DNA from: Candidatus Methylomirabilis limnetica
GTDB taxonomy: Bacteria > Methylomirabilota > Methylomirabilia > Methylomirabilales > Methylomirabilaceae
Reading direction: 5' to 3'
DNA length: 32,000 nt
Assembly (NCBI RefSeq): GCF_003044035.1
Contig: NZ_NVQC01000016.1
Coordinates: 60,001 to 92,000, forward strand
Numbering within the stretch: position 1 is the first letter of the stretch; each line of letters starts with the position of its first letter. Both the position numbers and the translations under genes were made by a program. The notes beneath the pieces were generated by a model, which did no database searches, had not been told where the DNA came from, and saw nothing but the letters and a program-made list of their open reading frames with translations. Shown piece by piece: positions 8,494 to 24,696 of this stretch.

Positions 8494-9440
8494 AAACGGT
8501 ACGCATTAACCTGGGAGAGACCGAACACCAGGAGCAACACTACGATCCGCGAGGGGTGAACGTGCAGCCTGGTGACCAGGTGGTGGTCGAGACCAAGTGG
8601 GGACAGGGGCTGGGTCGAGTATTCGCCACTTTCTCGATGTTTCCCCATCAAAAAATCACGGAACCACTCCCGGCCGTCCTCCGATTGGCAACCACTCGGG
8701 ATCGCGCCAACGAGGAACGGATCAAGCGCCTGGAATTGGAAGGGAAAGCCTCCTGCTTGCGGAAGATCACAGAACGGAAACTGCCGATGAAGCTGGTTGA
8801 TGTCAAGGCGAGCTTCGACCGGAGCAGGGTGACCTTTTACTTCTACGCCGACGCGCGGGTTGATTTCCGCGACCTGGTGAAGGAGTTGGCCCAGCAGTTT
8901 CACACCCGTATCGAGATGCGACAGATCCGTGCCAGGGACGTGGCCAGCAAGCTGGGCTGCGTTGGTCCGTGCGGCCGACAGCTCTGCTGCAAGACCTTTC
9001 TGAAAGAGTATGAACCGGTCTCAGTCCGGATGGCCAAAGACCAGGGCCTCCCCCTGAATCCGAGTAAGCTGGCGGGGATGTGCGGGCGGCTCAAGTGCTG
9101 TCTTCGCTATGAGCACTCAATGTATGAGGAGATGAAGCGGCGTCTGCCCAAGGTTGGTTCCCCCGTTGAGGCGCCTGCGGGATTAGGGATTGTGAGGGCG
9201 AGGAACATCCTGGCTGAATCGGTGGTGGTCGAACTGGAAGACAAGACGCAGATCACCGTGAAGGCGGCTGACCTGATCCACATCGGTCCCCCCCTGGACG
9301 ATACTACATCGCCCCGGGGCGGTTGCGGTGGCGGAGGCGGGGGTGGTGGCTGCAGCAGTGGCGGTGGCGGTGGGGGAGGCGGTGGCTGCAGCAGTGGCGG
9401 CTGCGGGGTGAGCTCTGCGCCGGACCGCAACAATATATGA
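8490..9440 (+). CDS. ricT: PSP1 C-terminal domain protein (YaaT/RicT family) with Gly/Cys-rich tail
   Basis: VTFYFYADARVDFRDLVKELAQQFHTRIEMRQI..RD....LG..G.CGRQLCC..FL..Y.PVS.RMAKDQ.L.LNPSK..G.CGRLKCCLRYE. It sits directly after holB, as in Firmicutes. The tail is GGCGGGGGGGGCSSGGGGGGGGGCSSGGCG. Confidence 0.88.
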   Translation: MKTVRINLGETEHQEQHYDPRGVNVQPGDQVVVETKWGQGLGRVFATFSMFPHQKITEPLPAVLRLATTRDRANEERIKRLELEGKASCLRKITERKLPMKLVDVKASFDRSRVTFYFYADARVDFRDLVKELAQQFHTRIEMRQIRARDVASKLGCVGPCGRQLCCKTFLKEYEPVSVRMAKDQGLPLNPSKLAGMCGRLKCCLRYEHSMYEEMKRRLPKVGSPVEAPAGLGIVRARNILAESVVVELEDKTQITVKAADLIHIGPPLDDTTSPRGGCGGGGGGGGCSSGGGGGGGGGCSSGGCGVSSAPDRNNI

Positions 9441-11401
9441 GTAACGAGACCTTCTACCTGACCACACCAATCTACTATGTCAACGCCACCCCGCATCTGG
9501 GACACGCCTACACCACCATCCTGGCCGATACGATGGCCCGCTTCCAGAAGCTCCGACTGGGGCCTGAGCGGGTCTATTTCCTGACTGGTACCGACGAGCA
9601 CGGCGACAAGATCGCCCAGGCGGCCACACAGACCGGCGAGAGCCCACAGGCCTATGCCGACCGGATCAGCGGCATCTTTCAGGAGACGTGGAGGCGACTG
9701 GGACTTGCGCCGAACCAGTTCATTCGCACAACCAGCGAACCTCATAAGCGTGCCGTACAGCGGCTGCTACAGCAGATCTATGATTCCGGGGACATCTATT
9801 TTGGGGAGTACGGCGGCCAGTACTGCTTTGGCTGCGAACGATTCTACACCGAGAAGGAACTTCAGGATGGCCGATGCCCCGATCATCAGACAACCCCGAC
9901 CTTTATCAAGGAGCAGAACTACTTCTTTCGGATGGGGAAGTACCAGGATTGGCTGATCGATCACATTCGCCACCACCCCGACTTCATTCGGCCGGAGCGC
10001 TTTAGAAACGAGGTCCTATCCTTTCTGAAAGACCCGCTGGAAGACCTCTGTATCTCGCGGCCTCGGACTCGCCTGGAGTGGGGGATCCCGCTCCCCTTTG
10101 ACGCCCAGTATGTCACCTATGTCTGGTTCGATGCCCTCGTCAACTACATCTCGGCCCCAGGCTGGCCCGATGGCGAGGTGTTCCAGCGTTTCTGGCCAAG
10201 CGCCCAGCATCTGATCGCCAAGGATATTCTGAAACCGCATGCTATCTACTGGCCGATCATGCTGAAGGCGGCCGGACTCCCGCTGTATCGCCACTTGAAC
10301 GTCCACGGCTACTGGAAGATCGAAGAGGCCAAGATGTCCAAGAGTAGGGGCTCGGTCGTCCGCCCTCTTGATCTGGCTGACAAGTACGGCGTCGATGCCT
10401 TTCGCTATTTCGTGTTGCGGGAGATGACGTTCGGCTTGGATGCCAGCTTCAGCGAGGAGGCACTTGTGGCCCGACTGAATGCGGACCTGGCCAACGACCT
10501 GGGGAATCTCTACAGCCGTGTCCTGAAGCTGATCCAGCGATACTATGACGGCAGGATTTCCGAATTGCCTGGTGAGCGTGGGCTTGCTGATGCCACGCGC
10601 GTCGCCGTCATGGGCGTGACAGCCGCGACGGAACGCTTTGCATTCAGTGAGGCGCTGGCGGCCATCTGGAATCTGGTCTCGGCCACGAACAAATACCTGG
10701 TGACCAACGAACCGTGGAAGGCGGACCCAGAGGATGCTCAAACAAAAGCGGTCCTGTTTAGCGCAGCCGAGACCCTCCGGGCGATCGCTATTCTTCTGTG
10801 GCCGTTTCTTCCTCAGACCGCAGAACGTATGCTCCAGGGTCTGGGCGTCTCAGAGCCGCTCACATCGATTCACTTCGATGAACTGCTGTCATCATCGTGG
10901 CATCTCGGGTCACAGGAGCGACGAGTCCAAGAGGTGGAGCCTCTCTTTCCCCGTATCGAGGTGACTGTTCCCCGCTTAAAACCTGCGGGGACAGGCGCCA
11001 AGCCGTTACCTCAAAAGTCCCCCCCACTCGTCCCCTCCCCCTCCGAGGGGGGAGAGTTGGGGGAGGGGTGCATCGAACAGATCACCATCGAGGAGTTTCG
11101 GCGCATCGACCTGCGCGTCGCGGAAGTGATCGAGGCGGTCGCGATCCCCGGCTCGAAGAAGCTGGTCAAGCTGCGGGTGAGGCTTCAGGACGAGGAGCGG
11201 ATCGTGGTGGCTGGCCTGAAGGAGCCGTATCCGCCGGAAAGCTGGGCGGGGAAGCGAGTCATCCTGGTGGCCAACCTCAGGCCAACCAAACTGATGGGGA
11301 TCGCCTCTCAAGGGATGGTGCTGGCCGCCGAAGACGAGTCAGGCCGGATCGTGCTACTCACTCCGGAACAGCCAATCTCCTCTGGTTCCAAGGTCCGCTA
11401 G
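9437..11401 (+). CDS. metG: Methionine--tRNA ligase with C-terminal tRNA-binding (Trbp111/EMAP-like) domain
   Basis: MSNETFYLTTPIYYVNATPHLGHAYT (HIGH region), KMSKSRG (KMSKS), and a C-terminal block ITIEEFRRIDLRVAEVIEA...KLVKL...VVAGL...LVANL.P.KLMGI.SQGMVLAA. The start ATG overlaps the ricT stop (ATGA). The ORF-track start at 9323 is an out-of-frame read-through of the Gly-rich repeat. Confidence 0.95.
   Translation: MSNETFYLTTPIYYVNATPHLGHAYTTILADTMARFQKLRLGPERVYFLTGTDEHGDKIAQAATQTGESPQAYADRISGIFQETWRRLGLAPNQFIRTTSEPHKRAVQRLLQQIYDSGDIYFGEYGGQYCFGCERFYTEKELQDGRCPDHQTTPTFIKEQNYFFRMGKYQDWLIDHIRHHPDFIRPERFRNEVLSFLKDPLEDLCISRPRTRLEWGIPLPFDAQYVTYVWFDALVNYISAPGWPDGEVFQRFWPSAQHLIAKDILKPHAIYWPIMLKAAGLPLYRHLNVHGYWKIEEAKMSKSRGSVVRPLDLADKYGVDAFRYFVLREMTFGLDASFSEEALVARLNADLANDLGNLYSRVLKLIQRYYDGRISELPGERGLADATRVAVMGVTAATERFAFSEALAAIWNLVSATNKYLVTNEPWKADPEDAQTKAVLFSAAETLRAIAILLWPFLPQTAERMLQGLGVSEPLTSIHFDELLSSSWHLGSQERRVQEVEPLFPRIEVTVPRLKPAGTGAKPLPQKSPPLVPSPSEGGELGEGCIEQITIEEFRRIDLRVAEVIEAVAIPGSKKLVKLRVRLQDEERIVVAGLKEPYPPESWAGKRVILVANLRPTKLMGIASQGMVLAAEDESGRIVLLTPEQPISSGSKVR
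11018..11070. repeat. GC-rich REP-like hairpin element lying in frame in the metG interdomain linker
   Basis: cccctcccc (11032-11040) pairs with ggggagggg (11060-11068), and ctccccc pairs with gggggag. It is translated as PLVPSPSEGGELGEGC. The same motif family occurs in the intergenic copies at 1043 and 11450. Confidence 0.7.
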
Positions 11402-11536: not shown

Positions 11537-12307
11537 ATGTTTATTGACACTCACGCCCATATCCAGATGCGGGAGTTCGATGCCGACCGAGTCGAAGCGC
11601 TCACGCGGGCCGAGGCTGCCGGGATCGGCCTGATGCTCGCGGTCGGGTATCACCTTGAGTCGAGCCGGCAAGCAGTGGAGGCGGCGGGCCGTTACCCGCA
11701 GGTCTACGCAAGCGTCGGCATCCATCCCCACGACGCTAACGGTTACGATGATGCGGCGGAAGAGACCCTTCGGGCCCTCGCCACGCAGCCCAAGGTTGTG
11801 GCCATCGGCGAAGCGGGCCTCGACTTCTTTCGCAACCGCTCGCCGCACTCTGTTCAGGCTGAGGCGTTTCGCCGTCAGATTCGCCTGGCCAGGGAGCTGG
11901 ATCTGCCGCTCATCGTCCACGATCGTGAAGCCGATCGCGACACGATGCAGATCCTGGAGGCAGAAGGGGTAGAGCGTGTGGTCCTGCACTGCTTCTCCGG
12001 CGATCTCGCGATGGCTGAAGAGGCCTGGCGGAGAGGCTACTACGTCTCAATCGCCGGTCCGGTCACCTATCCCAAGAACGAGGCCCTCCGCGAGGTCGTA
12101 CGGAAGGCCAATACGGATCGCCTCCTCTTGGAGACCGACTGCCCCTATCTCCCACCCCAAGCGTTCCGAGGCCAGCGGAACGAGCCAGCCCATCTCCTTC
12201 ACACCGCCCAAGAGGTCGCCAGGCTCCTGAATATGCCGCTCATCGAGCTAGGTTGCCTCACCAGCGAGAATGCCCGCCGCCTGTTCCGACTCCCTCCATT
12301 GGAATGA
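11537..12307 (+). CDS. tatD: TatD-family metal-dependent hydrolase/DNase (YabD/YcfH-like)
   Basis: MFIDTHAHI, VGIHPHDA, AIGEAGLDF, PLIVHDREA, VVLHCFSG, LLLETDCPYL. It lies downstream of metG, as in many bacteria. The ORF-track start at 11477 is upstream of the conserved N-terminus. Confidence 0.93.
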   Translation: MFIDTHAHIQMREFDADRVEALTRAEAAGIGLMLAVGYHLESSRQAVEAAGRYPQVYASVGIHPHDANGYDDAAEETLRALATQPKVVAIGEAGLDFFRNRSPHSVQAEAFRRQIRLARELDLPLIVHDREADRDTMQILEAEGVERVVLHCFSGDLAMAEEAWRRGYYVSIAGPVTYPKNEALREVVRKANTDRLLLETDCPYLPPQAFRGQRNEPAHLLHTAQEVARLLNMPLIELGCLTSENARRLFRLPPLE

Positions 12308-12531
12308 GTATCGCTCGTGCTTCCATTGCCCACCCTTTGTACTTATGACATAATGCCTGGTGTATCAGGATAGGAGAGTGCAGCGCGGCGGCTATGGATA
12401 GGCGGAGAGCCCTGTCCGCCGCCAGACGACAGTCCTGAAGAGACTAGTCGCATCCGGTCGGCGCTCATCGAAACAGGGTTGACTGTACGAGAAGGGTACT
12501 TGCTCTGAGTACGAGCACTGGAGAGAGGCAC

Positions 12532-12777: not shown

Positions 12778-12998
12778 GGCCTGGTACGCTCAGGTTCTTG
12801 ACCGATGAGAATGTCTCGCCTCGCCTGGTCGCGCCCTATCTCCCCCCCCAAGCCTTCCGAGGCCAGCGTAACGAGCCGGCCCATCTCCTGCACACCGCCC
12901 AAGAGGTTGCTAAGCTCTTGAATATGCCGCCGACTGAGCTCGGCCGCCTCACCACCGACAACGCCCGCCGCCTGTTGCGACTCCCTCCATTGGAATAA
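12774..12998 (+). pseudogene. Chimeric ORF: first ~20 codons of a DUF5615-type (PIN-like) toxin fused in frame to a duplicated TatD C-terminus
   Basis: The N-terminus LRFLTDENVSPRLVA resembles a DUF5615 start. From PYLPPQAFRGQRNEPAHLLHTAQEVAKLLNM...RLPPLE* onward it copies the last 54 aa of TatD. Confidence 0.75.
12834..12998 (+). repeat. Diverged direct repeat of the tatD 3' end (partner 12143-12307)
   Basis: 165-nt colinear match by eye, with 8 of 54 encoded residues differing. Both copies end in ccattggaatga / ccattggaataa. Confidence 0.85.
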
Positions 12999-13010
12999 TT
13001 GTCAACTCAA

Positions 13011-14135: not shown

Positions 14136-14245
14136 CATTCCGGGCTCGACAAGCCTGCCCCGTACTTGATACGGGGGAATCCAGTTTCTCTCTGGTTTCC
14201 CGCTCCCGGCTTATAACGTGCCGGGACAGGCTTTGCGGGAATGAC
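14136..14245. repeat. MITE-like element, family cattccggg...gacaagcctgcccc...gcgggaatga (copy 1 of 3)
   Basis: tcattccgggctcgacaagcctgccccgtacttgatacggggg...ccgggacaggctttgcgggaatgac has imperfectly inverted ends. Related copies lie at 16334-16420 and 20267-20367. Confidence 0.7.
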
Positions 14246-14305: not shown

Positions 14306-15295
14306 CTACGAGCGCCTGCCTAACAGTGTGAGACCATAGTGGGCGGCGCCGATCAGCGGCGTGCGTAGGTTCAATGAGACCTTCACTTCGATTGACTGAA
14401 GCAGTTCAGCGAAGCGCCCCTTGTCGGAGAAGGCATTGGTGAACGTGCCGTCTTGAAGTTTGGATAAAAGCTTCGGCGCGATCCCGCCACCGACATACAC
14501 CCCACCAATCGCGAGGGCCTTCAGGACCAGATTTCCCGCCTCTGCTCCGTAAATAGAGCAGAAAAGATCGAGCGCTTTCGTGCAGAGCAGGTCGTCCCCT
14601 GTCAGCCCGATCTCCGAAATCATGGCGCCAGGGTCATTCTCCGCGATCCGAGTTCGCAGCCACTCTGGCTCGGGGGCTATGCCGCTGTCCCGGAGGAACC
14701 GATAGATGTTGAAGAGCCCTGGACCGGACAGCACGCGCTCGTAGCTGACGCGGCCACGCTCCCGTTGCAGATAGCGGAGCAGGTCGATCTCCATGTCGCT
14801 GCGTGGGGCAAAGTCGGCGTGGCCGCCCTCAGTGGCCATGGGGTGATACCGCGCCCCGTCCCAGTACAGGATTGCCTCCCCCAGACCTGTCCCGGCTGCG
14901 ATGACGGCGATGTTCCCCTTTCGCTGAAGACCAGGTTGAAGCACACACAGGTCGGTCGGCTCGAGGTGGAGCATCCCGTAGGCTGCTGCTTCCAGATCGT
15001 TCAGGAGCTTCACTCGCGGAACGCGAAGGACTTCCGCCAGTCTGCGCTCATCCAACTCCCAGGGGAGGTTTGTGGCTTTACTCTGTCCTTCGATCACCGG
15101 TCCGGCCACCCCGAAGCAGGCCGCGTGTAGTGGCGGGCGAGATCCAGGTCCCATGAATTGATCCAGGACCGCCTCCAGCGACCCGTAACTCTGGCTGGGG
15201 AACGTTTCTTCACGGATGGCTTGCAGGCAAGTTGGCGTCTCCTCGAAGAGGCCGATAATGGTCTTCGTCCCACCGATGTCGCCAGCCAGGATCAT
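14306..15295 (-). CDS. glk: Glucokinase
   Basis: MILAGDIGGTKT, the AAGTGLGEA pattern (VIAAGTGLGEAIL), EGGH.DFAP, ER..SG.GL, GGVYVGGGIAPK. Confidence 0.92.
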   Translation of the reverse strand: MILAGDIGGTKTIIGLFEETPTCLQAIREETFPSQSYGSLEAVLDQFMGPGSRPPLHAACFGVAGPVIEGQSKATNLPWELDERRLAEVLRVPRVKLLNDLEAAAYGMLHLEPTDLCVLQPGLQRKGNIAVIAAGTGLGEAILYWDGARYHPMATEGGHADFAPRSDMEIDLLRYLQRERGRVSYERVLSGPGLFNIYRFLRDSGIAPEPEWLRTRIAENDPGAMISEIGLTGDDLLCTKALDLFCSIYGAEAGNLVLKALAIGGVYVGGGIAPKLLSKLQDGTFTNAFSDKGRFAELLQSIEVKVSLNLRTPLIGAAHYGLTLLGRRS

Positions 15296-16071
15296 GGGAC
15301 CTTCTCGCCGAGTCGGCTGGCGGCGGCCTGGTCAACAAGCCACAGCAATCGACCAGCTACCGGCCGGATGAGTTGGGCCGGGAGCCGCTCTGGGTCCGGC
15401 GGCCCTTCCAGAACTGCCTGGAGAACAGCGGCCTTCTCCCCTCCTGATACGAGGAACAGGATTGCTGACGCTCGATTGAGGATGGGTGGCGTCAGTGTCA
15501 GGCGATTCGTCTTCAGCTCAGGGATGTAGTTGGGCGCCACCCACCGCGTGGCCTCTTGAAGCGCGTGGGAGTACGGAAACAGCGAAGCGGTGTGACCGTC
15601 AGGCCCCAACCCCAGAAGAATAAGGTCGAACATCGGCGGCTCATCTGTTGGTCGTATCTCGAAAACCTTGGCGATTTCGGACTCGTACTCGCTGGCCGCC
15701 GCATCCAGGTCTGTCCGCTCGGCCTGCATCCGATGCACTTGGTTCGCGGGTATCGGAACGCGACTGAGCAGAGTAGCCCTTGCCATGCCGAAGTTCGAGT
15801 CCGGGTGCTCCGGCGGCGCCGCCCGCTCGTCGCCCCAGAAGATGTGAGTCCCTCGCCACGGCAGGCGAGTGCAGTACGGCTCAGCCGTCAGGAGCGAGTA
15901 GAGGCGCTTCGGGGTCGAGCCGCCTGCCAGGGCAACGGTGAAGCGTCCACAGCGGGCCACCGCCTTATCGGCGATCGCGACGACTTGCTTCGCGGCCTCC
16001 TGGGCGACAGCAGCGAAATCGGACACTACCAGTAGGTCGACCTCGTGCCTCAGTATCTGCCCGGTTTTCAT
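15292..16071 (-). CDS. pgl: 6-phosphogluconolactonase
   Basis: ALAGGSTPKRLY, W....IFWGDER, FDLILLGLGPDGHTASLFP, L.LT.P.L. It overlaps glk by 4 nt. Confidence 0.92.
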   Translation of the reverse strand: MKTGQILRHEVDLLVVSDFAAVAQEAAKQVVAIADKAVARCGRFTVALAGGSTPKRLYSLLTAEPYCTRLPWRGTHIFWGDERAAPPEHPDSNFGMARATLLSRVPIPANQVHRMQAERTDLDAAASEYESEIAKVFEIRPTDEPPMFDLILLGLGPDGHTASLFPYSHALQEATRWVAPNYIPELKTNRLTLTPPILNRASAILFLVSGGEKAAVLQAVLEGPPDPERLPAQLIRPVAGRLLWLVDQAAASRLGEKVP

Positions 16072-16114
16072 CGGTTCTGGGATCTCCCGACCTCCGCCTT
16101 TACCAATGGGTTCA

Positions 16115-16296
16115 GTAACTACTCAGGTGTTTAGGCTGTAGGCTGAAGGCTGTTAGCCATTGCGCATGGACCGAATCAAGAAGCCCAGAACCTTTTCGGT
16201 CTCCATCATGTTCGCGTCGCATTCTGAAAACGCCTGGCTCATCCGTGCGCGTTCCTACAGTCTAAAAGACTACAGTCTATCTACCTGAGTAGTTAC
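16115..16296. mobile_element. 182-bp miniature inverted-repeat element A with 8-bp target duplication and an internal relic of a four-helix-bundle (23S IVS protein/Avd family) gene tail
   Basis: TIR gtaactactcaggt / acctgagtagttac (14 bp perfect, ~29 bp imperfect). Subterminal heptamers (ctgtagg, ctgaagg / cctacag). Flanking direct repeat TGGGTTCA (16107-16114 and 16297-16304). The minus-strand relic reads ...FSECDANMMETEKVLGFLIRSMRNG*. Confidence 0.8.
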
Positions 16297-16333
16297 TGGG
16301 TTCATAAGTAACAAAACGTATCACAACTGTTTT

Positions 16334-16420
16334 GTCATTCCGGGCTTGACAAGCCTGCCCAGTACTTGATACTGGGGAATCCGGTGTATTCAGCCTGGAT
16401 CCCTGCTTGTGCGGGAATGG
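16334..16420. repeat. MITE-like element, cattccggg family (copy 2)
   Basis: gtcattccgggcttgacaagcctgcccagtacttgatactggggaat...cttgtgcgggaatgg. Confidence 0.65.
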
Positions 16421-16547
16421 CACGGTGTCGCCTGGCTTGTACACGCCTGACAATGTTGCTTCACGCAGGACTATGGAGAACCTACGCCTGCCGTATTGGC
16501 GTGTCAAGCAGATGATCGTGCCCCGGATGGGCGCAGCAGGCGGCCCC
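16421..16547 (+). repeat. Conserved ~127-nt block (copy 1; partner 20368-20496) preceding the promoter/leader module
   Basis: ggtgtcgcctg.cttgt.cac.cctga...gagaacctacgcctgccgt.ttggcgtgtcaa.cagat.atcgtgccccggatgggcg.agcaggcggccccc is shared by both copies with scattered substitutions. Confidence 0.7.
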
Positions 16548-16655
16548 CCACTTTTCCTTGACCGGGAGGGAGGGGGGGACGTTCTAATCTGCGCTGTCTG
16601 TGTGTGCCCCGGTTACTAGGCCGGGGCATGGAGCAACTTTCCTAGGAGGGAGTAG
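16548..16655 (+). promoter_or_regulatory. Promoter/leader module copy a (TTGACC, interrupted G-tract, TAATCT, stem-loop, AGGAGG)
   Basis: It aligns with 17797-17901 and 20646-20750. Here the G-tract reads GGGAGGGAGGGGGGG, putting 21 nt between TTGACC and TAATCT. Perfect 8-bp stem tgccccgg/ccggggca. Confidence 0.5.
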
Positions 16656-16724
16656 ATGCGACGAGAACGGAGGAGGGCTGTGAGCAGGGCGGTGCAGTGT
16701 CTGTTGGGAGGCGCGGCTCGGTGA
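16656..16724 (+). pseudogene. Truncated signal-peptide remnant, paralog of the collagen-repeat protein N-terminus
   Basis: MRRERRRAVSRAVQCLLGGAAR* compares with MRRGRRRAVSGAVQCLLGGAVLAMG... at 20751. Nucleotide homology ends near 16715. Confidence 0.75.
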
Positions 16725-16752
16725 GCTGCGTGGCCATGCGCGTTTCGCTGTT

Positions 16753-17052
16753 TCACCCTGCGGGCCTCTTCGCGTCGCGCGGTTCGAAGCTGATAAGCAA
16801 GCGCGATCCGGTCGCCTCCGCCAGACGCTCCAGCGTCCGCATCGATGGGTGCGTGCGTCCGCTTTCAAGACGGGCGACGACGGGCTGCGTCGTCCCCATC
16901 TTCCGGGCCAGCTCCTCTTGCGTTAGACCGGCGCGGTTCCTCACATCCATCACGGCCGAGGCCAGGACAAACTCTTTCTCAAGCGCCTCGTAAGCCTTCC
17001 GGTATTTCGGCTCTTTCATCCACTTCTTGTGTATGTCAGATATGCGTGCCAT
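16753..17052 (-). CDS. higA: XRE-family HTH antitoxin (HigA-like)
   Basis: 99 aa. The HTH is RAGLTQEELARKMGTTQPVVARLESG. It lies 13 nt downstream of the toxin gene (toxin-first order). Confidence 0.85.
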   Translation of the reverse strand: MARISDIHKKWMKEPKYRKAYEALEKEFVLASAVMDVRNRAGLTQEELARKMGTTQPVVARLESGRTHPSMRTLERLAEATGSRLLISFEPRDAKRPAG

Positions 17053-17065
17053 TGCTACACCTCCA

Positions 17066-17404
17066 TCAGTGAACCGATTTCGCGCGGGACAAGGCCAGAT
17101 CTATCTCGCGGCGCGGCGTTTTCTCTGTGCTCTTCACGAAGACCCGCACGATTACCACGCGCCGGCCCACGGCCGTCACATACAGCGCCCGCGAAATTCC
17201 GCTGCGGCCTTTCAGCCGCACCTCCCACAGCCGACCTTCCACATGCTTGACGTGCGGCTCGCCTACACGCTCCAGACCCTTGTCCTCGATGAGCTTCGCG
17301 ATACGCGCTAGCCTCGCCCGCATGTCTTCAGGCAAGGCCTCAACCTCCGCGTCAACGGTTTCATTGAGGGTTTCGACCGTCCAGCGCATACCAGAATATA
17401 CCAC
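17066..17404 (-). CDS. higB: RelE/ParE-superfamily toxin, phage Gp49-like (HigB-like)
   Basis: Pattern: V..E...LP.D.RARL.R...L.E.G......PHVKHVEG.LWE.R.....GI.RALYV...GRRVVI.RVF.KS.KTPRREI.LA. The true start may be ATG 17389 rather than GTG 17404. Confidence 0.85.
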   Translation of the reverse strand: MVYSGMRWTVETLNETVDAEVEALPEDMRARLARIAKLIEDKGLERVGEPHVKHVEGRLWEVRLKGRSGISRALYVTAVGRRVVIVRVFVKSTEKTPRREIDLALSRAKSVH

Positions 17405-17406
17405 AA

Positions 17407-17418
17407 AAGATATATCTT
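17407..17418. promoter_or_regulatory. 12-bp perfect palindrome AAGATATATCTT immediately upstream of higB (candidate operator / -10 region)
   Basis: Self-complementary AT-rich dodecamer 3 nt upstream of the toxin ORF. TA operators are typically palindromes overlapping the promoter. Confidence 0.45.
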
Positions 17419-17463
17419 GGGAAGCCCTGATGTCAGGGTGCGTTCGGCGATCATGGGTGCGTA

Positions 17464-17605
17464 GTAACTACCCAGGTGTTTAGACTGAAGGTTCTAAATT
17501 ATCTCGCAAGGCACGAATCGAGCCATTCAAGACCTTTTCGGAGTTTTGTATGATCACGCATGACTTACCCCTAAAAGCCTTCAGCCTATCTACCTGAGTA
17601 GTTAC
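17464..17605. mobile_element. 142-bp miniature inverted-repeat element B (same family and orientation as A) with 8-bp target duplication
   Basis: TIR gtaactacccaggt / acctgagtagttac. Flanking direct repeat GGTGCGTA (17456-17463 and 17606-17613). The minus-strand relic reads ...CVIIQNSEKVLNGSIRALRDN... Confidence 0.8.
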
Positions 17606-17796
17606 GGTGCGTAGAAGAAAGACCGCCGTCAGGCCTACTTCTCTGTCAATCCCGGCTATTGCTACAAACAACTGCTTGATACGCACGTCGTTCTCTCGTG
17701 CAGCGGTCGTATGCCCGGTGCGCCGGGCTGCACAGGTGCTTCCGGCCACGACCTGTCCGCGTGCGGACACACATCGGGAGGCGCAGGCGGCCCCGC

Positions 17797-17901
17797 ACTT
17801 TCCCCTTGACCGGGGGGGGTGCGTTCTAAGCTGCGCTGTCTTTGTGTGTCCCGGTGACCAGGCCAGGACAGGGCAGCAACCTTTACCATAAGGAGGTAAC
17901 A
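17797..17901 (+). promoter_or_regulatory. Promoter/leader module copy d (TTGACC-G8-...TAAGCT, stem-loop, AGGAGG)
   Basis: cactttccccTTGACCggggggggtgcgttcTAAGCTgcgctgtctttgtgtgtcccggtgaccaggccaggaca...aAGGAGGtaacaATG. There are 15 nt between the hexamers. Confidence 0.5.
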
Positions 17902-18690
17902 ATGCGACGACTACGCTGGGGACTGCTGATCGGAGTGCTCGGAGTGACGGTCGTGGTGGCGACCCCGCCACCGTCAGAGGCCGCCCAATGCGCCCCCGAC
18001 ACGGTGCCGTCTGGCAACAGTTGCATCGACCGGTACGAAGCCAGCGTCTGGCAGACCACCAACCCGGGCCTCATTCGCCTGATCAAGTTGGGCCGCGTGA
18101 CCCTGGCGCGGCTCACTGCAGCCGGCGCGACCCCGCTCGGGCTCGCCGCTGGGGACCTGGTCGCCGCCGGCTGCCCGACCACCGGTAACGGCTGCACAAA
18201 CGTCTACGCCGTCTCGATCCCCGGGGTGGAGCCAGCCCATGACCTCACCTGGTTCCAGGCGGCCGCCGCAGCCCGCAACGCTGGGAAACGCCTGCCGACC
18301 AATGCCGAGTGGCAGGCCGCCGCGCTGGGGACCCCGGATACGGGTGGAGCCGACAACGGCACGACCACGTGCAACACCGACAATCTGGCTCCCGGTGTGA
18401 CGCCCACCGGCTCCCGGTCGGCGTGCGTCTCCGATGTGGGGGCCTTCGACATGGTGGGGAACCTCTGGGAGTGGGTGGCCGACTGGGTGCCGCTCAGCAC
18501 GATCTGCGTCACCGGTTTGTTCGGAACGGGTGATGCGAACTGCCTGGCCGGAGCGAGCACCTTGAACGGCCCGGGCGCGCTGATCCGCGGCGGCGACTTC
18601 TTCGGCTCGGTTGCCGGCGTCTTCGCGGTGGCTGGCGACAACGCCCCGTCGGGCGCGTTCGGCCGCGTCGGGTTTCGTGCCGCCCGCTAG
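17902..18690 (+). CDS. Secreted FGE/SUMF1-type C-type-lectin-fold protein with DGR variable-region-like C-terminus
   Basis: The start is taken at ATG 17902, after AGGAGG. Signal peptide MRRLRWGLLIGVLGVTVVVATPPPSEA. Motifs CIDRYEASVW, AGKRLPTNAEWQAAALG, DMVGNLWEWVADW, and the end RGGDFFGSVAGVFAVAGDNAPSGAFGRVGFRAAR*. Confidence 0.85.
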   Translation: MRRLRWGLLIGVLGVTVVVATPPPSEAAQCAPDTVPSGNSCIDRYEASVWQTTNPGLIRLIKLGRVTLARLTAAGATPLGLAAGDLVAAGCPTTGNGCTNVYAVSIPGVEPAHDLTWFQAAAAARNAGKRLPTNAEWQAAALGTPDTGGADNGTTTCNTDNLAPGVTPTGSRSACVSDVGAFDMVGNLWEWVADWVPLSTICVTGLFGTGDANCLAGASTLNGPGALIRGGDFFGSVAGVFAVAGDNAPSGAFGRVGFRAAR

Positions 18691-18796
18691 TCGTCTGTTT
18701 TTGATACTTTGATACTTTGCACATTGACGTCCTCGTCGGCGGGCGGCCGGGGTTGGCCGCTCGCCGGTGAGGACCAGGGCCGGCGTCTCGCTATGC

Positions 18797-18897
18797 CTCC
18801 TTCTCCCTTCCCCCCCGTGTGGGGGAAGGTGAGGATGGGGGGTGAATTCAGCGACGGCCCCCCACCTTAATCCTCCCCCGCAAGGGGGGAGGAACGC
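18797..18897. repeat. Two REP-like GC hairpins inserted between the conserved avd upstream sequence and the avd start
   Basis: ccttccccc/.../gggggaagg (18806-18829) plus gtgagg, and tcctccccc/gcaag/gggggagga (18871-18893). This segment is absent from the paralogous site at 21855-21875. Confidence 0.75.
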
Positions 18898-18912
18898 TGG
18901 GTGAGGGGACCG

Positions 18913-19668
18913 ATGGCCGACGACGTCATCCCGATCGTGCAGCGGCCCTACGATTTCGCCGTGGCGCTGTACGGCTACGTGAACCGCTTTCCGCGCATGC
19001 ACAAGCTGCTCCTCGGGCGAGAACTCATGGGGCTGGCGCTCCGGCTCCTCGTCACGCTGGTGACGGCCAACCGCCGACGCGACAAAGTCCCGGAGTTGGA
19101 AGAGGCCAGCGGCGTGGTCGATGCGCTGCGCATCACGCTTCGGTTGAGCATGCGCCTGGGTCTGCTCAGTCACAAAGGATACGAGGCGCTGTCGCGAGAC
19201 CTGGACGAGATCGGCCGCATGCTCGGGGGCTGGCTCAAGCACAGCGCCGCAGCGGGCGCAGAGACGACCGAGGGTCCGCCAAGGACTCCCGACGATAGGC
19301 TGAGGAGGCGTCGGCAGATGGGCGGGCGCCAACGGGGCCTGCCTCCGTCTGTCTGCCAAGGCCCTCGATCTCCCGATGTCCTGTTTCGAATCGCCGCCGG
19401 TCAGCGCGCTCGCTGCAAGACCATCCAGATCACCGGCGCCTCCGCTGAGGTCATCCGCGCTAAACTGTCCGGTATCATCGAGCGGCCAAGCCACTGTTCT
19501 CCTGCTTCCAGCGAGCACTCTTCATTCTCTATGCATGCCGGCGCGGAGCGTATTGACAAGCCCCTCGGCCTGTTCCAGCGATGTGCGAACGTCCTGTTCC
19601 GTTATCCTGGTAGTCGCGATCAATGGATAGCGCTCCACCAGATAGAATGCAGAAATCTTTTGACATAA
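18913..19668 (+). CDS. avd: Avd-like four-helix-bundle protein (DGR accessory variability determinant family) with an aberrant C-terminal extension
   Basis: The first ~115 aa read IPIVQRPYDFAVALYGYVNRFPRMHKLLLGRELMGLALRLL...DALRITLRLSMRLGLLSHKGYEALSRDLDEIGRMLGGWLKH, the Avd/23S-IVS-protein pattern. The frame then stays open to 19668 through non-homologous sequence and overlaps the HEPN gene antisense, so the native 3' end is probably lost. Confidence 0.7.
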   Translation: MADDVIPIVQRPYDFAVALYGYVNRFPRMHKLLLGRELMGLALRLLVTLVTANRRRDKVPELEEASGVVDALRITLRLSMRLGLLSHKGYEALSRDLDEIGRMLGGWLKHSAAAGAETTEGPPRTPDDRLRRRRQMGGRQRGLPPSVCQGPRSPDVLFRIAAGQRARCKTIQITGASAEVIRAKLSGIIERPSHCSPASSEHSSFSMHAGAERIDKPLGLFQRCANVLFRYPGSRDQWIALHQIECRNLLT

Positions 19669-19917
19669 TTCGCGGAAGCCTGCAAGACCGGGATCGAAGG
19701 CCATCGCGTCATCTAAGAGGGCCTCCAAGTCGTGGATACGCCGAAGTTGCCAACCCTTGGACAGCAGAAATGCCTTGAGAAACTTTTCCACCCCCTTGCT
19801 GAAGGCAAAATCCCGCCATCTCGGGATCGTCGTTTTAAGCATCCGCTCCACCCGTCCCAGGTCTTTCTCCGCGATACGCAGCCAATCGACGGCGTAGGGA
19901 GATTCCTCACGCGGCAT
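19522..19917 (-). CDS. HEPN domain protein (toxin of HEPN/MNT pair)
   Basis: MPREESPYAVDWLRIAEKDL...FLKAFLLSKGWQLRRIHDLEALL (R-x-x-H-D-L HEPN motif)...YLVERYP. ATG 19917 overlaps the MNT 3' end by 11 nt. Confidence 0.85.
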   Translation of the reverse strand: MPREESPYAVDWLRIAEKDLGRVERMLKTTIPRWRDFAFSKGVEKFLKAFLLSKGWQLRRIHDLEALLDDAMAFDPGLAGFRELCQKISAFYLVERYPLIATTRITEQDVRTSLEQAEGLVNTLRAGMHRE

Positions 19918-20239
19918 AGAGGACCTCTCCTTTATTGAAGATTTCCTTGATGAATTGGTCGCCAACAGCCAGCCGCTTTTCGATCTCGTCTGGCGTGAGC
20001 ACGATAGCCTCCAGCGGCACTGACGGATGAGTCCCTGTGAGAATGCGTTTTACCGCCATCCAGCGATCGATGAAGCGCTCCGGCGTCTCTTTGATGATGA
20101 GCAGATCGATGTCGCTGTCCGGTCCTGGGGCGCCATAGGCATACGAGCCAAACAGAATCACCTGCTTGGGAGCGTACTCAGCGACAAGCTTGTTCACAAT
20201 GATCTGGATGAGTGTCCGTATGTCGTGTGACGTGGTCAT
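19907..20239 (-). CDS. Minimal nucleotidyltransferase (MNT antitoxin of HEPN/MNT pair)
   Basis: ILFGSYAYGAPGPDSDIDLLII is the GS-x10-DxD polymerase-beta-type NTase motif. The start is taken at ATG 20239. The ORF-track TTG 20275 is possible but less likely. Confidence 0.85.
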   Translation of the reverse strand: MTTSHDIRTLIQIIVNKLVAEYAPKQVILFGSYAYGAPGPDSDIDLLIIKETPERFIDRWMAVKRILTGTHPSVPLEAIVLTPDEIEKRLAVGDQFIKEIFNKGEVLYAA

Positions 20240-20266
20240 CGCATGAACCCGCGTACTCCTAAGGTC

Positions 20267-20367
20267 GCTTGACAAGCCTGCCCCGTACTTGAAACGGGGG
20301 TATTCAGTGTTTCCGGCTAGGATTCCCGCTCCCAGCTTAAGGCATGCGAGGACAAGCGCGGGAATGA
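20267..20367. repeat. MITE-like element, cattccggg family (copy 3, left end truncated)
   Basis: gcttgacaagcctgccccgtacttgaaacggggg...gacaagcgcgggaatgat. Confidence 0.6.
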
Positions 20368-20496
20368 TATGGTGTCGCCTGACTTGTGCACTCCTGAAAA
20401 AGTCGCACCACGCGCGACTAGGGAGAACCTACGCCTGCCGTTTTGGCGTGTCAATCAGATTATCGTGCCCCGGATGGGCGTAGCAGGCGGCCCCCA
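20368..20496 (+). repeat. Conserved ~127-nt block, copy 2
   Basis: It aligns with 16421-16547. It is followed by a ~150-nt insertion (20497-20645) that is absent in copy 1. Confidence 0.7.
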
Positions 20497-20645
20497 CCCA
20501 AGCACAGCGAGAGATTTCGCCATCACTCGATGCTTCCCGTCAATGCGGGCTCCCGGAGGGCGCGTGGTACGCTCAGTGCAATTATGAGCGATTACTTCAT
20601 TTCGTTCGCAATGGCAACGTTCTCTTGCTGTTCTTGAGCCCTCGC

Positions 20646-20750
20646 ACTTTTCTATTGACCGGGGGGGGGTGCGTTCTAAGCTGCACTCTCTGTGTGTGTC
20701 TCGGCTACCAGGCCGGGGCTGGGAGTAACCTTTACTAGGAGGAGGCAGCG
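20646..20750 (+). promoter_or_regulatory. Promoter/leader module copy b (TTGACC-G9-...TAAGCT, stem-loop, AGGAGGAGG)
   Basis: cacttttctaTTGACCgggggggggtgcgttcTAAGCTgcactctctgtgtgtgtctcggctaccaggccggggct...AGGAGGAGGcagcgATG. There are 16 nt between the hexamers. Confidence 0.5.
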
Positions 20751-21404
20751 ATGAGACGAGGACGGAGGAGGGCCGTGAGCGGAGCGGTGCAGTGTCTGTT
20801 GGGAGGCGCGGTGCTCGCAATGGGCCTGACGGGGCTGGCGAGCAACATCGAAGCGGCGGATATCAATGCGTGCGTCAACGAGGTGAATGGGTTGGTCCGG
20901 ATCGTTGCGCCGGGTACCGTGTGCAAGCCTGTCGAAACGGCCATGACTTGGAATAGCACAGGGCCGGCAGGTGCGACAGGTGCGGCAGGACCAGTAGGCG
21001 CAGCGGGACCAGCAGGGCCGGCTGGACCTGAGGGCCCGCCGGGTCCGGCCGGCTCGGGCAGCCAGATGGTGCGCGATCTCGCTCGATTTGCGGTGCCGCA
21101 GGTAGCTCCTCTCGAGTCGATCACCCTGGCCGACCTGCCCGAGCTCACGGCGATGATCGGCAAGGACGCCACCCTCACGACCGTCGCATCCCGCAACGTG
21201 ATCCTGCAGTTGTCAGCCAGCACGACCGAGTTCGACTACCGGCGGCTGTTGCTCGCCTGGATCGGGGCCCCGTCCATGGTCGGAGGAGCCCTTTCCTGGC
21301 CGATCAGGATCGAGCACTCAGGCACCAACACCGAATACAGTCGCCCGTCCTCCTCTTCGACAGAGATGCTCGAACTGGTCGTCGTCGCCAGCGCGACTGA
21401 GTGA
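20751..21404 (+). CDS. Secreted protein with collagen-like (G-X-Y)n triple-helix repeat and uncharacterised C-terminal domain
   Basis: Arg-rich signal peptide, then INACVNEVNGLVRIVAPGTVCKPVETAMTWNSTGPAGATGAAGPVGAAGPAGPAGPEGPPGPAGSGS, then ~110 aa with no motif I recognise. Confidence 0.8.
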   Translation: MRRGRRRAVSGAVQCLLGGAVLAMGLTGLASNIEAADINACVNEVNGLVRIVAPGTVCKPVETAMTWNSTGPAGATGAAGPVGAAGPAGPAGPEGPPGPAGSGSQMVRDLARFAVPQVAPLESITLADLPELTAMIGKDATLTTVASRNVILQLSASTTEFDYRRLLLAWIGAPSMVGGALSWPIRIEHSGTNTEYSRPSSSSTEMLELVVVASATE

Positions 21405-21574
21405 CGACCAACCCTTAGCCCGGATCCACCGAACGTCTTCGCCTGACAGGTCGATGACGGATACGGGGAGACGATCGACCCCGATCGAGGTCATGGCCAA
21501 GCCCTGAGCGGGGCGAACGAGGGTCGGAGGACGGCCAAAGCATATTGCCCATATGGCTGCGAGGCGATACCCCC

Positions 21575-21790
21575 TTCCACCGCCCATGAATCTACAGGAC
21601 GACGAACTCCTCTACCCCCTCGATTCAGGATATGGGTAGAGATCATCGTCGTGCTCACGTCGCTAGGACCGGCACCGTGTCTGCACCGTGCGGATGTCGT
21701 CTCCATCCTCCCCCAGTGGGTCGCAAAGGCATGGCGGCAGGTGAGAACGGCACTAGCCTGCCCTCGCTTGGTCTGGCTCCCGCTGCCTCA
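21575..21790 (-). pseudogene. Frameshifted C-terminal relic of an IntI-like (integron-integrase-type) tyrosine recombinase
   Basis: The minus strand reads LTCRHAFATH, then (shifted frame) LGEDGDDIRTVQT, then [28 protein letters not shown]. The canonical sequence is H.[48 protein letters not shown]. The catalytic Tyr is replaced by Ser and the N-terminal three quarters are absent. Confidence 0.7.
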
Positions 21791-21874
21791 GGAGCCGCCG
21801 GAGCAGCTTGCCTGTGCCAGGGCCGCCGGGGTAGGCCGCTCGCCGGTGAGGACGCCCGCCCGGTGGGGGCAGAG

Positions 21875-22012
21875 ATGGCCGACGCGGTCATCCCGATCGT
21901 GCAGCGGGCCTACGATTTTGCTGTGGCGCTGTACGGCTACGTGAACCGCTTTCCGCGCATGCACAAGCCGCTCCTCGGGCGAGAACTCATGGGGCTTACG
22001 ATACTGAATTGA
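21875..22012 (+). pseudogene. Truncated second copy of the Avd-like gene (first ~40 codons)
   Basis: MADAVIPIVQRAYDFAVALYGYVNRFPRMHKPLLGRELMGL, then unrelated sequence and a stop. The nucleotide match to 18742-19033 includes the upstream ggccgctcgccggtgagga. Confidence 0.8.
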
Positions 22013-22112
22013 GCGTGTCGCATGCGCTGGATCAGGGAGGGGATGAAAGATACATCCATGAGGGAGCAGAAAGACCCCGCGCTGCGATGAGGTGGTTGAC
22101 ACCTGGGGCCCG

Positions 22113-23708
22113 TTATGGGTTGACCCACTCCCGGCCGTCGGCCTCGATGAAGCGGTCGGCCTCTTTTGGGCCCCAGTTGCCGGCGGGGTAGTATGCCAGG
22201 CCGGTGCGGCCGTCGGCGGCCCAGGCTTCGACCACTGGCGTCACCATCGCCCATGCAGCCTCAACCTCATCACGCCGAATGAACAGCGTCGAATCCCCGA
22301 GCATACAGTCCAGCAGTAGCCGCTCGTAGGCCTCCTCGGGATCGACCCCGAAGGCCTCCCGGTAGGAGAAGCCCAATCGGGCCGGCACCAGGCTGATTCG
22401 CGGTCCAGGTGGCTTGAGCCCCACCCGCAACGAGATTCCCTCGTCGGGCTGGATTCGAAGGGTGAGTCGGTTTGGCTTCACGATGTCCTGGTTCTTATGG
22501 CCCGCATGGGCCGCCTGTTGAAACAAGAGGAGAGGTGGCTGTCGGTATTGGATGGTGACCTCGGTGACCCGCTTCGGGAGCGCCTTACCGGTCCGCAGAT
22601 AGAACGGCACCCCCGCCCAGCGCCAGTTGTCGATCTCCAGGCGCAGTGCCACGAAGGTCTCCATCGCCGTCTCTGCCGCAACCTCGGGCTCGTCGGCATA
22701 GGCCGCGATCTTCTTCCCGCGAAGCTGGCCGCTGATATACTGTGCCCGGACAGTTGTGTCGTTGGCGCGCTCTGCCGGGACGGGACGGATCGCCCGCAAG
22801 ACCTTGACCTTCTCGTCGCGGACCGCGTCAGGCTCGAAAGTGGCGGGCGGCTCCATGGCCACCAGCGACAGGAGCTGCAGCATGTGGTTTTGCACCATGT
22901 CCCGCATGGCGCCCGCGGTATCGTAGTAGCTGCCTCTACCCTCCACGCCCAGGTCCTCCGCAACGAGGAGCTGGACGTGGTCGACATACCGACGGTTCCA
23001 CAACGGTTCGAAGATGCTGTTGCCGAAGCGGAAGGTGAGGATGTTCTGGACGGTTTCCTTTCCGAGGTAGTGGTCGATGCGGTACACCTGCTGCTCGCGG
23101 AAGACCCGATGGATCTCGGCATTCAGGACCAGAGCCGTGGCTAGATCCCGTCCGAATGGTTTTTCGACGATGATCCGGCAACAGCCGTGAGCCTCTGGCG
23201 CAGGATCAGTGTCGTGCGGACCGTCCCAGACCTTGCTCACCAGTCCGGAGGCCCCCAGACGAGTCACAACTGCAGCGTAGGCCGCGGGGGGTGTGGCCAG
23301 GTAATAGAGCCGATTGCCGCCGGTTCCGTGCTGGCGATCCACGTCAGCGAGGAGGAGCCGGAGCCGCTCGTACCCGGCAGAGTCATCGAATGAGGCCGCG
23401 ACATAGTAGAGGCTCCGCGCCAGGCGGTCCCACACCTCCGCATTGAGCGGGTGAAGACGAGAAAACTGCTCCACCGCCCCGCGCATCTCATCGCGGAACG
23501 CTTCGTGGTCCTTCTCTCGTCTCGCGAACCCGATCACCGCAAACCGGTCAGGGAGCAGGCCGTCGTGCGCCAGCGCGTACAGGGCGGGCAAGAGCTTGCG
23601 CCTGGTCAGGTCGCCGGATGCGCCGAAGATGACCAACGCACACCCGTCCGGCACCTGGTAGCGGGAGGGTTGAGCGATCGCCTCGGTCAGGATCTGCGTG
23701 AGAGCCAT
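22113..23708 (-). CDS. zwf: Glucose-6-phosphate 1-dehydrogenase
   Basis: LVIFGASGDLTRRKLLPALY, RIDHYLGKE, VQNIL.FRF.N, EKPFG. The start is taken at ATG 23708, after GGAGGA. The ORF-track 23888 start would add 60 non-conserved residues overlapping gnd. Confidence 0.95.
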   Translation of the reverse strand: MALTQILTEAIAQPSRYQVPDGCALVIFGASGDLTRRKLLPALYALAHDGLLPDRFAVIGFARREKDHEAFRDEMRGAVEQFSRLHPLNAEVWDRLARSLYYVAASFDDSAGYERLRLLLADVDRQHGTGGNRLYYLATPPAAYAAVVTRLGASGLVSKVWDGPHDTDPAPEAHGCCRIIVEKPFGRDLATALVLNAEIHRVFREQQVYRIDHYLGKETVQNILTFRFGNSIFEPLWNRRYVDHVQLLVAEDLGVEGRGSYYDTAGAMRDMVQNHMLQLLSLVAMEPPATFEPDAVRDEKVKVLRAIRPVPAERANDTTVRAQYISGQLRGKKIAAYADEPEVAAETAMETFVALRLEIDNWRWAGVPFYLRTGKALPKRVTEVTIQYRQPPLLLFQQAAHAGHKNQDIVKPNRLTLRIQPDEGISLRVGLKPPGPRISLVPARLGFSYREAFGVDPEEAYERLLLDCMLGDSTLFIRRDEVEAAWAMVTPVVEAWAADGRTGLAYYPAGNWGPKEADRFIEADGREWVNP

Positions 23709-23712
23709 TGAG

Positions 23713-24696
23713 TTATCCTCCGGTAGGACGTTCGGTATGTCCGCCGAACTGCTGCCGCATCGCCGACAGCAGCTTCTCGGCGAATGTATGCGCCCGTCTG
23801 GACCGGAAGCGCGCGTACAGCGACGCCGAGAGCACATCGGCCGGCACTGCCTCTTCAATAGCCGCCATGATCGTCCAGCGTCCCTCACCGGAATCCTGGA
23901 CGAACCCGGTATAGTTCGATAACGTGGGGTCTTCAGCGAGCGCCATCGCCGTCAGGTCGAGTAACCACGATGAAACGACGCTGCCGCGCCGCCACACTTC
24001 CGCAACATCAGCCACGTTGAAGTTGTAACGGTACTCCTCAGGGAGGTCCTGTGAGATCGCATTGCGTAGGATGTCGAAGCCTTCCGCATAGGCTTGCATC
24101 AGGCCGTACTCAATGCCGTTGTGAACCATCTTGACGAAATGGCCAGCGCCCGCCGGGCCGCAGTGCAGGTAGCCATCCTCCGCCGTGCCGCCTAACTTCT
24201 CGCGGCCTGGGGTACGCGGGATGTCGCCCAATCCCGGTGCGAGCGTCTTGAAGATCGGCTCCAGATGTGCGACCGCGTGCGCTTCCCCGCCGATCATCAG
24301 GCAGTAGCCGCGTTCCAACCCCCAGACCCCGCCGCTGGTGCCCACATCCACGTACTGGATATCCCGCTCTTTTAATGCTCTCGCGCGGCGCACATCATCT
24401 TTGTAATAGGAATTGCCGCCGTCGATGATGATGTCGTCCGCGTCCATCCGCTGTGAGAGCGCCATGATGGTCTGCTCCGTTGGGTCTCCCGCCGGCACCA
24501 TCACCCACGCCACCCGCGGCCTGGTGAGGGCGCGCACGAACTCGTCCAGCGACATGGCAGCCGTTGCGCCTTCCTGTGCTAATGCCCCCACGTGGTCGGG
24601 ATTCACGTCGAACACGACGCACTCATGCCCACCGCGCAGCAGGCGGCGGACTATGTTTGCGCCCATCCTGCCCAGACCGATCATTCCGAGTTGCAT
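23713..24696 (-). CDS. gnd: 6-phosphogluconate dehydrogenase (decarboxylating), short Gnd-like form
   Basis: [19 protein letters not shown] Rossmann N-terminus, [33 protein letters not shown]. The start ATG 24696 is preceded by GAGGAG. Confidence 0.92.

Follow-up and report, generated by a model that had tools for sequence, protein, structure and literature searches.

An accessory island of Candidatus Methylomirabilis limnetica carries three segments, here called modules a, b and d, which are probably paralogous copies of one cassette composed of a promoter, a 5' untranslated region and the start of a signal-peptide gene, the promoter being of a genus-confined family with a labile run of G in its spacer. 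The segments lie within the 32,000-nt stretch of DNA analysed here, referred to as the window (GCF_003044035.1, NZ_NVQC01000016.1, positions 60,001-92,000, forward strand). As read from sequence comparison, the cassette would have been duplicated along with DGR target genes, the template repeat and reverse transcriptase of that DGR having disappeared since, and the -35 and -10 roles of its hexamers would follow from the promoter family on which it drew. The G run appears to be an evolutionarily labile length element, which varies among paralogues, among orthologues and once within one metagenome. Its consensus length is the same in all the independent assemblies of this strain that were compared, and rapid ON/OFF switching would be a possibility.

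Cassette copies and the island that holds them

Three colinear segments of about 105 nt had been described in a first-pass annotation of this DNA. Their coordinates and strings were all recovered and the colinearity stood, but the length did not; the modules measure ~115 nt and the homology is wider still, running from ~30 nt 5' of the -35 to ~60 nt inside the signal-peptide codons (self-BLAST). Module a (16541..16660, plus strand; nhmmer E = 1.4e-30 with a three-copy profile) is a relic and comprises TTGACC (16558-16563), a G tract broken by two A's, GGGAGGGAGGGGGGG (16564-16578), and TAATCT (16585-16590) at a spacer of 21 nt, followed by a leader with a hairpin (16606-16627), AGGAGG (16644-16649) and ATG (16656). 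Module b (17788..17905, plus strand; E = 1.4e-33 with the same profile) has TTGACC (17806-17811), G8 (17812-17819) and TAAGCT (17827-17832) with a 15-nt spacer, and its leader holds a hairpin with a C.A mismatch (17848-17869), AAGGAGG (17890-17896) and ATG (17902). In module d (20637..20754, plus strand; E = 4.5e-35), TTGACC (20655-20660), G9 (20661-20669) and TAAGCT (20677-20682) are arranged with a spacer of 16 nt, and the leader consists of a hairpin (20698-20719), AGGAGGAGG (20737-20745) and ATG (20751). An uninterrupted homopolymer of at least ~8 nt between -35 and -10 is thus present in b and d and interrupted in a.

The likeness of the three modules is far above chance. A search for further copies, as had been proposed, showed a, b and d to be the sole copies in the 2.55-Mb genome, all in one 6-kb island; the next nhmmer match of the three-copy profile had E = 4.5. 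Modules b and d share 76% identity across 173 nt, and a and d have ~200 nt more in common upstream, with a 145-nt insertion in d (self-BLAST). BLAST detected the cassette in none of 60 relatives, and the exact module pattern had no match in metagenome contigs or genome contigs. The module itself is strain-specific.

The island (16072..22112; delimited by Pfam, the ORF list and self-BLAST) is inserted in a minus-strand pentose-phosphate cluster between pgl (15292-16071, minus strand; Pfam Glucosamine_iso) and zwf (22113-23888, minus strand; Pfam G6PD). It is made up of the three modules, DGR remains and two toxin-antitoxin pairs, in the order module a with a 22-codon stump; HTH/Gp49; module b with a lectin-fold gene and bAvd; HEPN/nucleotidyltransferase; and module d with a collagen-like gene and a truncated avd. 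In agreement with the first-pass annotation, each copy is followed by a signal-peptide ORF, with hairpin, AGGAGG-type RBS and ATG present in all three. The truncated signal-peptide ORF behind module a (16656..16724, plus strand; 22 codons, MRRERRRAVSRAVQCLLGGAAR and stop) is paralogous to the collagen-like protein's N-terminus (92% identity to 20750-20811) and is cut off by the HTH/Gp49 pair (16753-17404, minus strand; Pfam HTH_3 and Gp49). Module b precedes the gene of a secreted FGE-sulfatase/C-type-lectin-fold protein of the DGR-target type (17902..18690, plus strand; 262 aa; PF03781, E = 3.3e-17), after which comes the gene of the DGR accessory protein bAvd (18901..19250, plus strand; PF22296, E = 1.8e-16). 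Behind module d lie the gene of a secreted collagen-like protein (20751..21404, plus strand; 217 aa; weak PF01391 match) and a truncated second avd copy at ~21875-22012, found by repeat search and by tblastn (88% identity over 43 aa, to 21875-22003). Over its N-terminal 100 aa, the collagen-like protein has 42% identity (E = 2e-17) with a collagen-like/NHL protein from a different Methylomirabilis genome, whose gene also stands behind a family promoter, with G10.

DGR operons follow the layout target, avd, TR, RT. The island is like them in that module b leads into a C-type-lectin-fold target and then bAvd, and module d into a second gene and then a truncated avd; unlike them, it is without TR or RT. 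No TR-like match to the 3' end of the lectin-fold gene (18400-18760) was found anywhere in the genome, and no reverse transcriptase in the island, the sole RVT_1 match of the genome being on another contig (C4). With the target fold and bAvd present and TR and RT absent, the modules therefore head two (formerly three) target-type genes of an engine-less DGR. An overlapping HEPN and nucleotidyltransferase (MNT) pair (19522-20275, minus strand; Pfam families from gene tables) sits where the TR and RT of a DGR would be expected after avd.

An island in this state might be nothing but inert debris, its modules being leftovers of segmental duplication whose promoter activity is not under selection. 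The lack of TR and RT would fit, as would the truncation of copy a and its splitting by the toxin-antitoxin insertion, the truncated second avd, the sub-optimal spacers and the absence of the island from all relatives examined (60, BLAST). We consider this unlikely, since the other assemblies all carry intact, identical ORFs behind b and d, since both modules retain their hexamers, RBS and start codons, with a as the example of decay, and since the pairing of the promoter with collagen-like and lectin-fold genes recurs in other species. Duplication of a cassette with its target genes remains the reading that we prefer.

The leader hairpin had been reported as retained in all three copies, with one compensatory pair. 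A hairpin is indeed present in each; a conserved structure is not borne out by three sequences with one compensatory pair and one mismatch, the additional C.A in the stem of b. The compensatory pair exists as well, but its copies had been mislabelled, the actual pairs being U-A in the 17797 copy (b), U.G in the 20646 copy (d) and C-G in a. Compared with shuffled sequence, only the leader of a folds better (z = -3.0), with z = -0.5 for b and +0.7 for d. A candidate terminator at 17818-17837 (GGTGCG...TGCGCT) was rejected, as three of its six pairs are G.U and it overlaps the -10.

Further repeats were noted in the window. Two short, MITE-like elements (16114-16311 and 17463-17620) with matching terminal inverted repeats, GTAACTAC[T/C]CAGGT ... 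ACCTGAGTAGTTAC, flank the HTH/Gp49 pair. A three-copy repeat (14144-14231, 16344-16407 and 20267-20357) starts with GCTTGACAAGCCTGCCCCGTACTTGATACGGGG, that is TTGACA and then a hairpin, and recurs elsewhere (C37:46131, C38:94549); it is probably of REP/MITE type, and a generic promoter scan called TTGACA-16-GATACT at 16346, inside it. Positions 12143-12312 and 12834-13003 are the two units, 691 nt apart, of a 170-nt direct repeat (86% identity). A GGC/GGT-rich imperfect tandem repeat with 36-nt and 12-nt periods (9317-9402), within a plus-strand ORF (9323-11401), probably encodes a glycine-rich linker.

Promoter family, spacer and leader RNA

By the distribution of its sequence matches, the promoter family to which the modules are assigned is essentially confined to the genus Candidatus Methylomirabilis. 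Its architecture is a T-rich stretch, TTGACA, a G-rich spacer and TAnGCT. TTGAC and TA.GCT do not vary among ~30 related promoters of other genomes and metagenomes of Methylomirabilis, and the 18 members that were aligned all have TTGAC, GC.TT.TA.GCT and a G core; many loci of the genus match the window modules past the hexamers, with the T-rich stretch, TTGACA, G8-G11 and (A/T)GC(G/C)TT(C/A)TA(N)GCT. When a profile built without the window copies was run against the 2.55-Mb genome (nhmmer), module d was the best match (E = 4.7e-5) and module b the second (E = 3.7e-4); the third was an interrupted tract with an exact 17-nt spacer, TTGATA-GGGGTAGGGTAGCTTTC-TATACT, and module a gave E = 0.61. 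A covariance model of the core (R1) matched modules b and d at E = 8.7e-10 and 1.9e-10. Its strong matches (E < 1e-4) were in the genus only, where it found 11 of 20 genomes at E <= 1e-3 and 17 of 20 at E <= 0.05; among 131 other genomes of the phylum, three gave marginal partial matches. A degenerate core pattern, scanned over 185,579 species, occurred in Methylomirabilota MAGs only, and also in 12 metagenome contigs.

The genome has 97 G/C runs of at least 8 nt, five of which sit 1-6 nt 3' of TTGAC (four independent loci; ~0.5 expected), and TTGACA ranked top among 180 permuted hexamers for runs of at least 9. The five are the runs of modules b and d and G9 runs at three unrelated loci, namely upstream of a 955-aa TIG-domain secreted protein (C11:275892-275900, minus strand), of a radical-SAM protein gene (C33:57323-57331, plus strand) and of an IPTL-CTERM DUF1565 beta-helix protein (C35:110896-110904, plus strand). 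These three start 4-5 nt after TTGAC(A/G), and their orthologous promoters elsewhere have G8-G11. Over the genus, TTGACN followed within 0-5 nt by G8 was found at ~24 loci in 14 of 20 genomes, as against 6 for a reversed control, with A as the sixth base of the -35 in 17 of the 24. The family searches were seeded with pure-G members, which biases the share of pure tracts upward. In a sample gathered via the downstream RNA, pure G spacers numbered 3 of 11, and the interrupted ones there were 14-18 nt long; G-richness is therefore a property of the family, and an uninterrupted run may be fortuitous.

The association with secreted proteins, proposed from the window copies, extends to the family. 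Signal peptides, judged by eye, are encoded by ~16-17 of 18 genes downstream of family and other G-tract promoters. The products comprise collagen-like/NHL, Lcl_C (DUF1566; two cases), Kelch, TIG and beta-helix proteins and several lipoproteins.

Family membership bears directly on what the hexamers are. That the modules hold a sigma-70-type promoter with the G run between its -35 and -10, as the first-pass annotation had it, is upheld by the family-wide conservation of both hexamers and by the independent profile that ranks d and b at the top. TTGACC is probably the -35 and TAAGCT (TAATCT in a) the -10. The former matches the consensus at five of six positions and the latter at three of six, these being T1, A2 and T6; because the -10 match is only 3/6, a generic sigma-70 scan did not call the window modules. 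A T-rich, UP-like stretch lies 5' of the -35. Family members with interrupted G-rich spacers mostly hold 16-18 nt, which strongly supports the hexamer assignment.

Alternatively, the block of TTGAC, G run and GC.TT.TA.GCT could be a regulator site, or a transcribed leader RNA or G-quadruplex-type element, with transcription starting elsewhere. Conservation does continue beyond the hexamers, with GC.TT ahead of the -10, the tract of copy a fits the quadruplex motif G3N1G3N1G3N1G3, and G-rich spacers are peculiar to the family and not general in the promoters of this genome. Even so, we hold this to be very improbable. The invariant hexamers are a canonical -35 and a TAnnnT -10, set 16-18 nt apart in members without a homopolymer and preceded by the UP-like stretch; many members are followed, at a fixed distance, by the conserved terminator of a ~150-nt RNA; a three-tetrad quadruplex is impossible from G8 or G9 alone; and no Rfam family matches the window modules or the wider leader RNA. 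A G bias of promoter spacers genome-wide was likewise tried and rejected, G and C both being 0.28 in 90 TTGACA-N17-TAnnnT sites.

Sites of the form TTGACA-N-TAnnnT in this genome number 90 at 17 nt, 40 at 18, 24 at 16 and 4 at 15. None of the three module spacers is optimal, as had been stated, with 15 (b), 16 (d) and 21 nt (a) against a peak at 17 nt in the organism's own genome. Given that its sigma-70 promoters have spacers of 17 +/- 1 nt, we infer that copy d (16 nt) would be weak to moderate and that copy b (15 nt) would be poorly active unless the run gained 1-2 G; copy a, with a spacer of 21 nt, two A's in its tract and a truncated ORF, would be dead. With their sub-optimal spacers, the promoters of b and d may be near-silent, or may need an unseen activator.

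Many family promoters are followed by an RNA of ~150 nt that has a conserved hairpin terminator, GCGCCTTTTGCGCCTG...CAGGC.GC.AAAGGCGCGTTTGTGTTTT, at its end; compensatory changes are seen at four pairs of the stem. It was seen at L012, L024, L019, L038, L040, L041, L042, L062, L063, L065, L068, L069 and L071, all in other Methylomirabilis genomes and metagenomes, and always shares the orientation of a gene 45-160 nt 3', often that of a secreted protein or lipoprotein. This RNA is a candidate attenuator-type leader or sRNA. A conserved leader peptide within it was rejected, as neither frames nor stops are conserved and indel lengths are not divisible by 3. A covariance model of the leader RNA (R2) found 1-3 copies each in 10 of the 20 genus genomes and no copy in this genome, where a truncated copy lies outside the window (C35:109010-109170). 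The window modules, which reach the RBS ~60 nt after the -10, have nothing in common with such family members beyond the promoter and, perhaps, the initial ~45 nt of leader. On one metagenome contig, a c-di-GMP-I-GGC riboswitch (L042:3084-3217; 61.5 bits, above the gathering threshold) lies between the family promoter with its leader RNA and a small lipoprotein gene.

Length of the G run

The first-pass annotation had proposed the run as a possible phase-variable switch. In this strain its length proved invariant at consensus, an outcome which that annotation had named as counting against the proposal, with G8 in 2 of 2 independent assemblies for b and G9 in 5 of 5 for d; the assemblies, from several runs and retrieved by exact-protein look-ups, give the majority allele and would drop any minority length variant. 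The G9 promoters at C35:110896 and C11:275892 had G9 in 3 of 3 and 2 of 2 assemblies of this strain, and another family member had G9 in 3 of 3. Exact-protein look-ups for more family members returned 1-3 contigs each and no extra length variants.

Between genomes, length does vary, in family members other than the window modules, which are without orthologues. Orthologous promoters 1-3 G apart are L014/L016 (G9/G8, with identical flanks), L046/L007 (G9/G10), L023/L027 and this genome's own C33 promoter (G11/G8/G9), and L013/L015 (G11/G9). Within one metagenome (Ga0233425), two contigs (L035 and L045) have G9 and G8 in 140 nt that are otherwise identical, and it is here that the assembly broke. 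The genome of one relative was assembled from Ion Torrent data, with homopolymer sequencing error (PMC6094997), so some of the cross-genome differences may be error. A wider spread of spacer lengths in pure-G members was not upheld as proof of slippage, interrupted spacers also spanning 14-18 nt in the sample gathered via the RNA. At contig ends, a run of G10 (C32, 1683-1692) has the same 30-nt flank as G8 inside another contig (C2, 1003-1010), and runs of G17 and G34 occur at other ends; they look like poly-G artefacts of two-colour chemistry or assembly forks, which calls for caution on homopolymer lengths at contig ends.

Phase variation of the run is plausible, if on present evidence rather doubtful. 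It would work by frequent slipped-strand mispairing, which would move the spacer in and out of 16-18 nt and so, within subpopulations, reversibly switch or grade expression of two surface proteins, the lectin-fold and the collagen-like one; we regard this as a possibility of the less probable kind. Several observations are in its favour: G8 and G9 stand exactly in the spacer, 1-2 nt below the 17-nt optimum, G/C runs are enriched after TTGAC in the genome (5/97) and in the genus (~24 vs 6), nearly all the downstream genes (~16-17/18) carry signal peptides, orthologous promoters differ by 1-3 G and one contig pair of the same metagenome by one, the tract of the relic copy a is interrupted by substitutions, and proven analogues exist in tp0126, the tpr genes, porA and fetA. 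Set against these are the 12 of 12 observations of unchanged length at four G-tract promoters in independent assemblies, together with the 3 of 3 at another member, the occurrence of G-rich spacers in interrupted, non-slippery members of the family, and tract lengths of G8-G9, near the lower limit of those that switch fast. We prefer to read the run as a spacer element whose length drifts over evolutionary time.

Relation to known systems and significance

Host-adapted pathogens (Neisseria, Treponema, Bordetella) provide the textbook cases of promoters under homopolymer control. In the Bordetella fim promoters, with which the first-pass annotation had compared the run, a poly-C tract sets the distance from the activator (BvgA) site to the -10. 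The modules are like these in having a homopolymer in the promoters of surface-protein genes and one promoter design for several paralogous genes; unlike in fim, the run separates canonical -35 and -10 hexamers, and no activator site can be made out. Closer parallels are tp0126 of T. pallidum, whose poly-G spacer promoter is most active with a 17-nt spacer and to which the tpr genes are related, and the phase-variable poly-G/poly-C spacer promoters of porA in N. meningitidis (PMC7864442) and fetA in N. gonorrhoeae (PMC5320596). As in tp0126, tprE/G/J/L, porA and fetA, a homopolymer of 8-11 G lies between -35 and -10, best activity would be expected at 17 nt, the products are surface or secreted proteins with signal peptides, and tract length varies between related genomes. 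Unlike in those systems, where within-strain heterogeneity and switching are proven, consensus length is invariant here in independent assemblies, the G-rich spacer is inherited in a homologous promoter family with many interrupted members, and the organism is not a host-adapted pathogen but a free-living anaerobic methanotroph.

The triplication fits promoter reuse, as described together with putative mobile promoters by Nijveen, Matus-Garcia and van Passel (2012; PMC3575422). Similar promoter-leader segments stand before non-homologous genes (lectin-fold and collagen-like), both within and across related genomes, and some family segments carry an RNA motif along. Unlike mobile promoters, the cassette has no transposase or terminal repeats at its limits. 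The window copies include the first ~20 signal-peptide codons, and duplication of gene 5' ends is as likely as promoter mobility.

Candidatus Methylomirabilis is a slow-growing, free-living, nitrite-dependent methanotroph. The literature yielded no report of homopolymer-controlled promoters or phase variation in Methylomirabilis or in NC10/Methylomirabilota. It is tentatively conceivable that these bacteria run contingency loci in which poly-G in the spacer stochastically tunes the repertoire of secreted and surface proteins. Such a repertoire may include collagen-like proteins, C-type-lectin/Lcl_C-fold proteins (DGR targets among them), an exosortase-sorted beta-helix protein and lipoproteins.

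Even without switching, a genus-specific promoter/leader family is defined, which provides usable -35/-10 coordinates for an uncultured organism and points to an uncatalogued, terminated leader RNA before secreted-protein genes. Should the G runs prove to switch, surface proteins would be varied in a methanotroph from the environment, perhaps as a defence against phage or grazers, and the DGR target with the lectin fold would be exposed to variation at two levels. Simple-repeat phase variation would then be layered on DGR hypervariation, outside host-associated pathogens.
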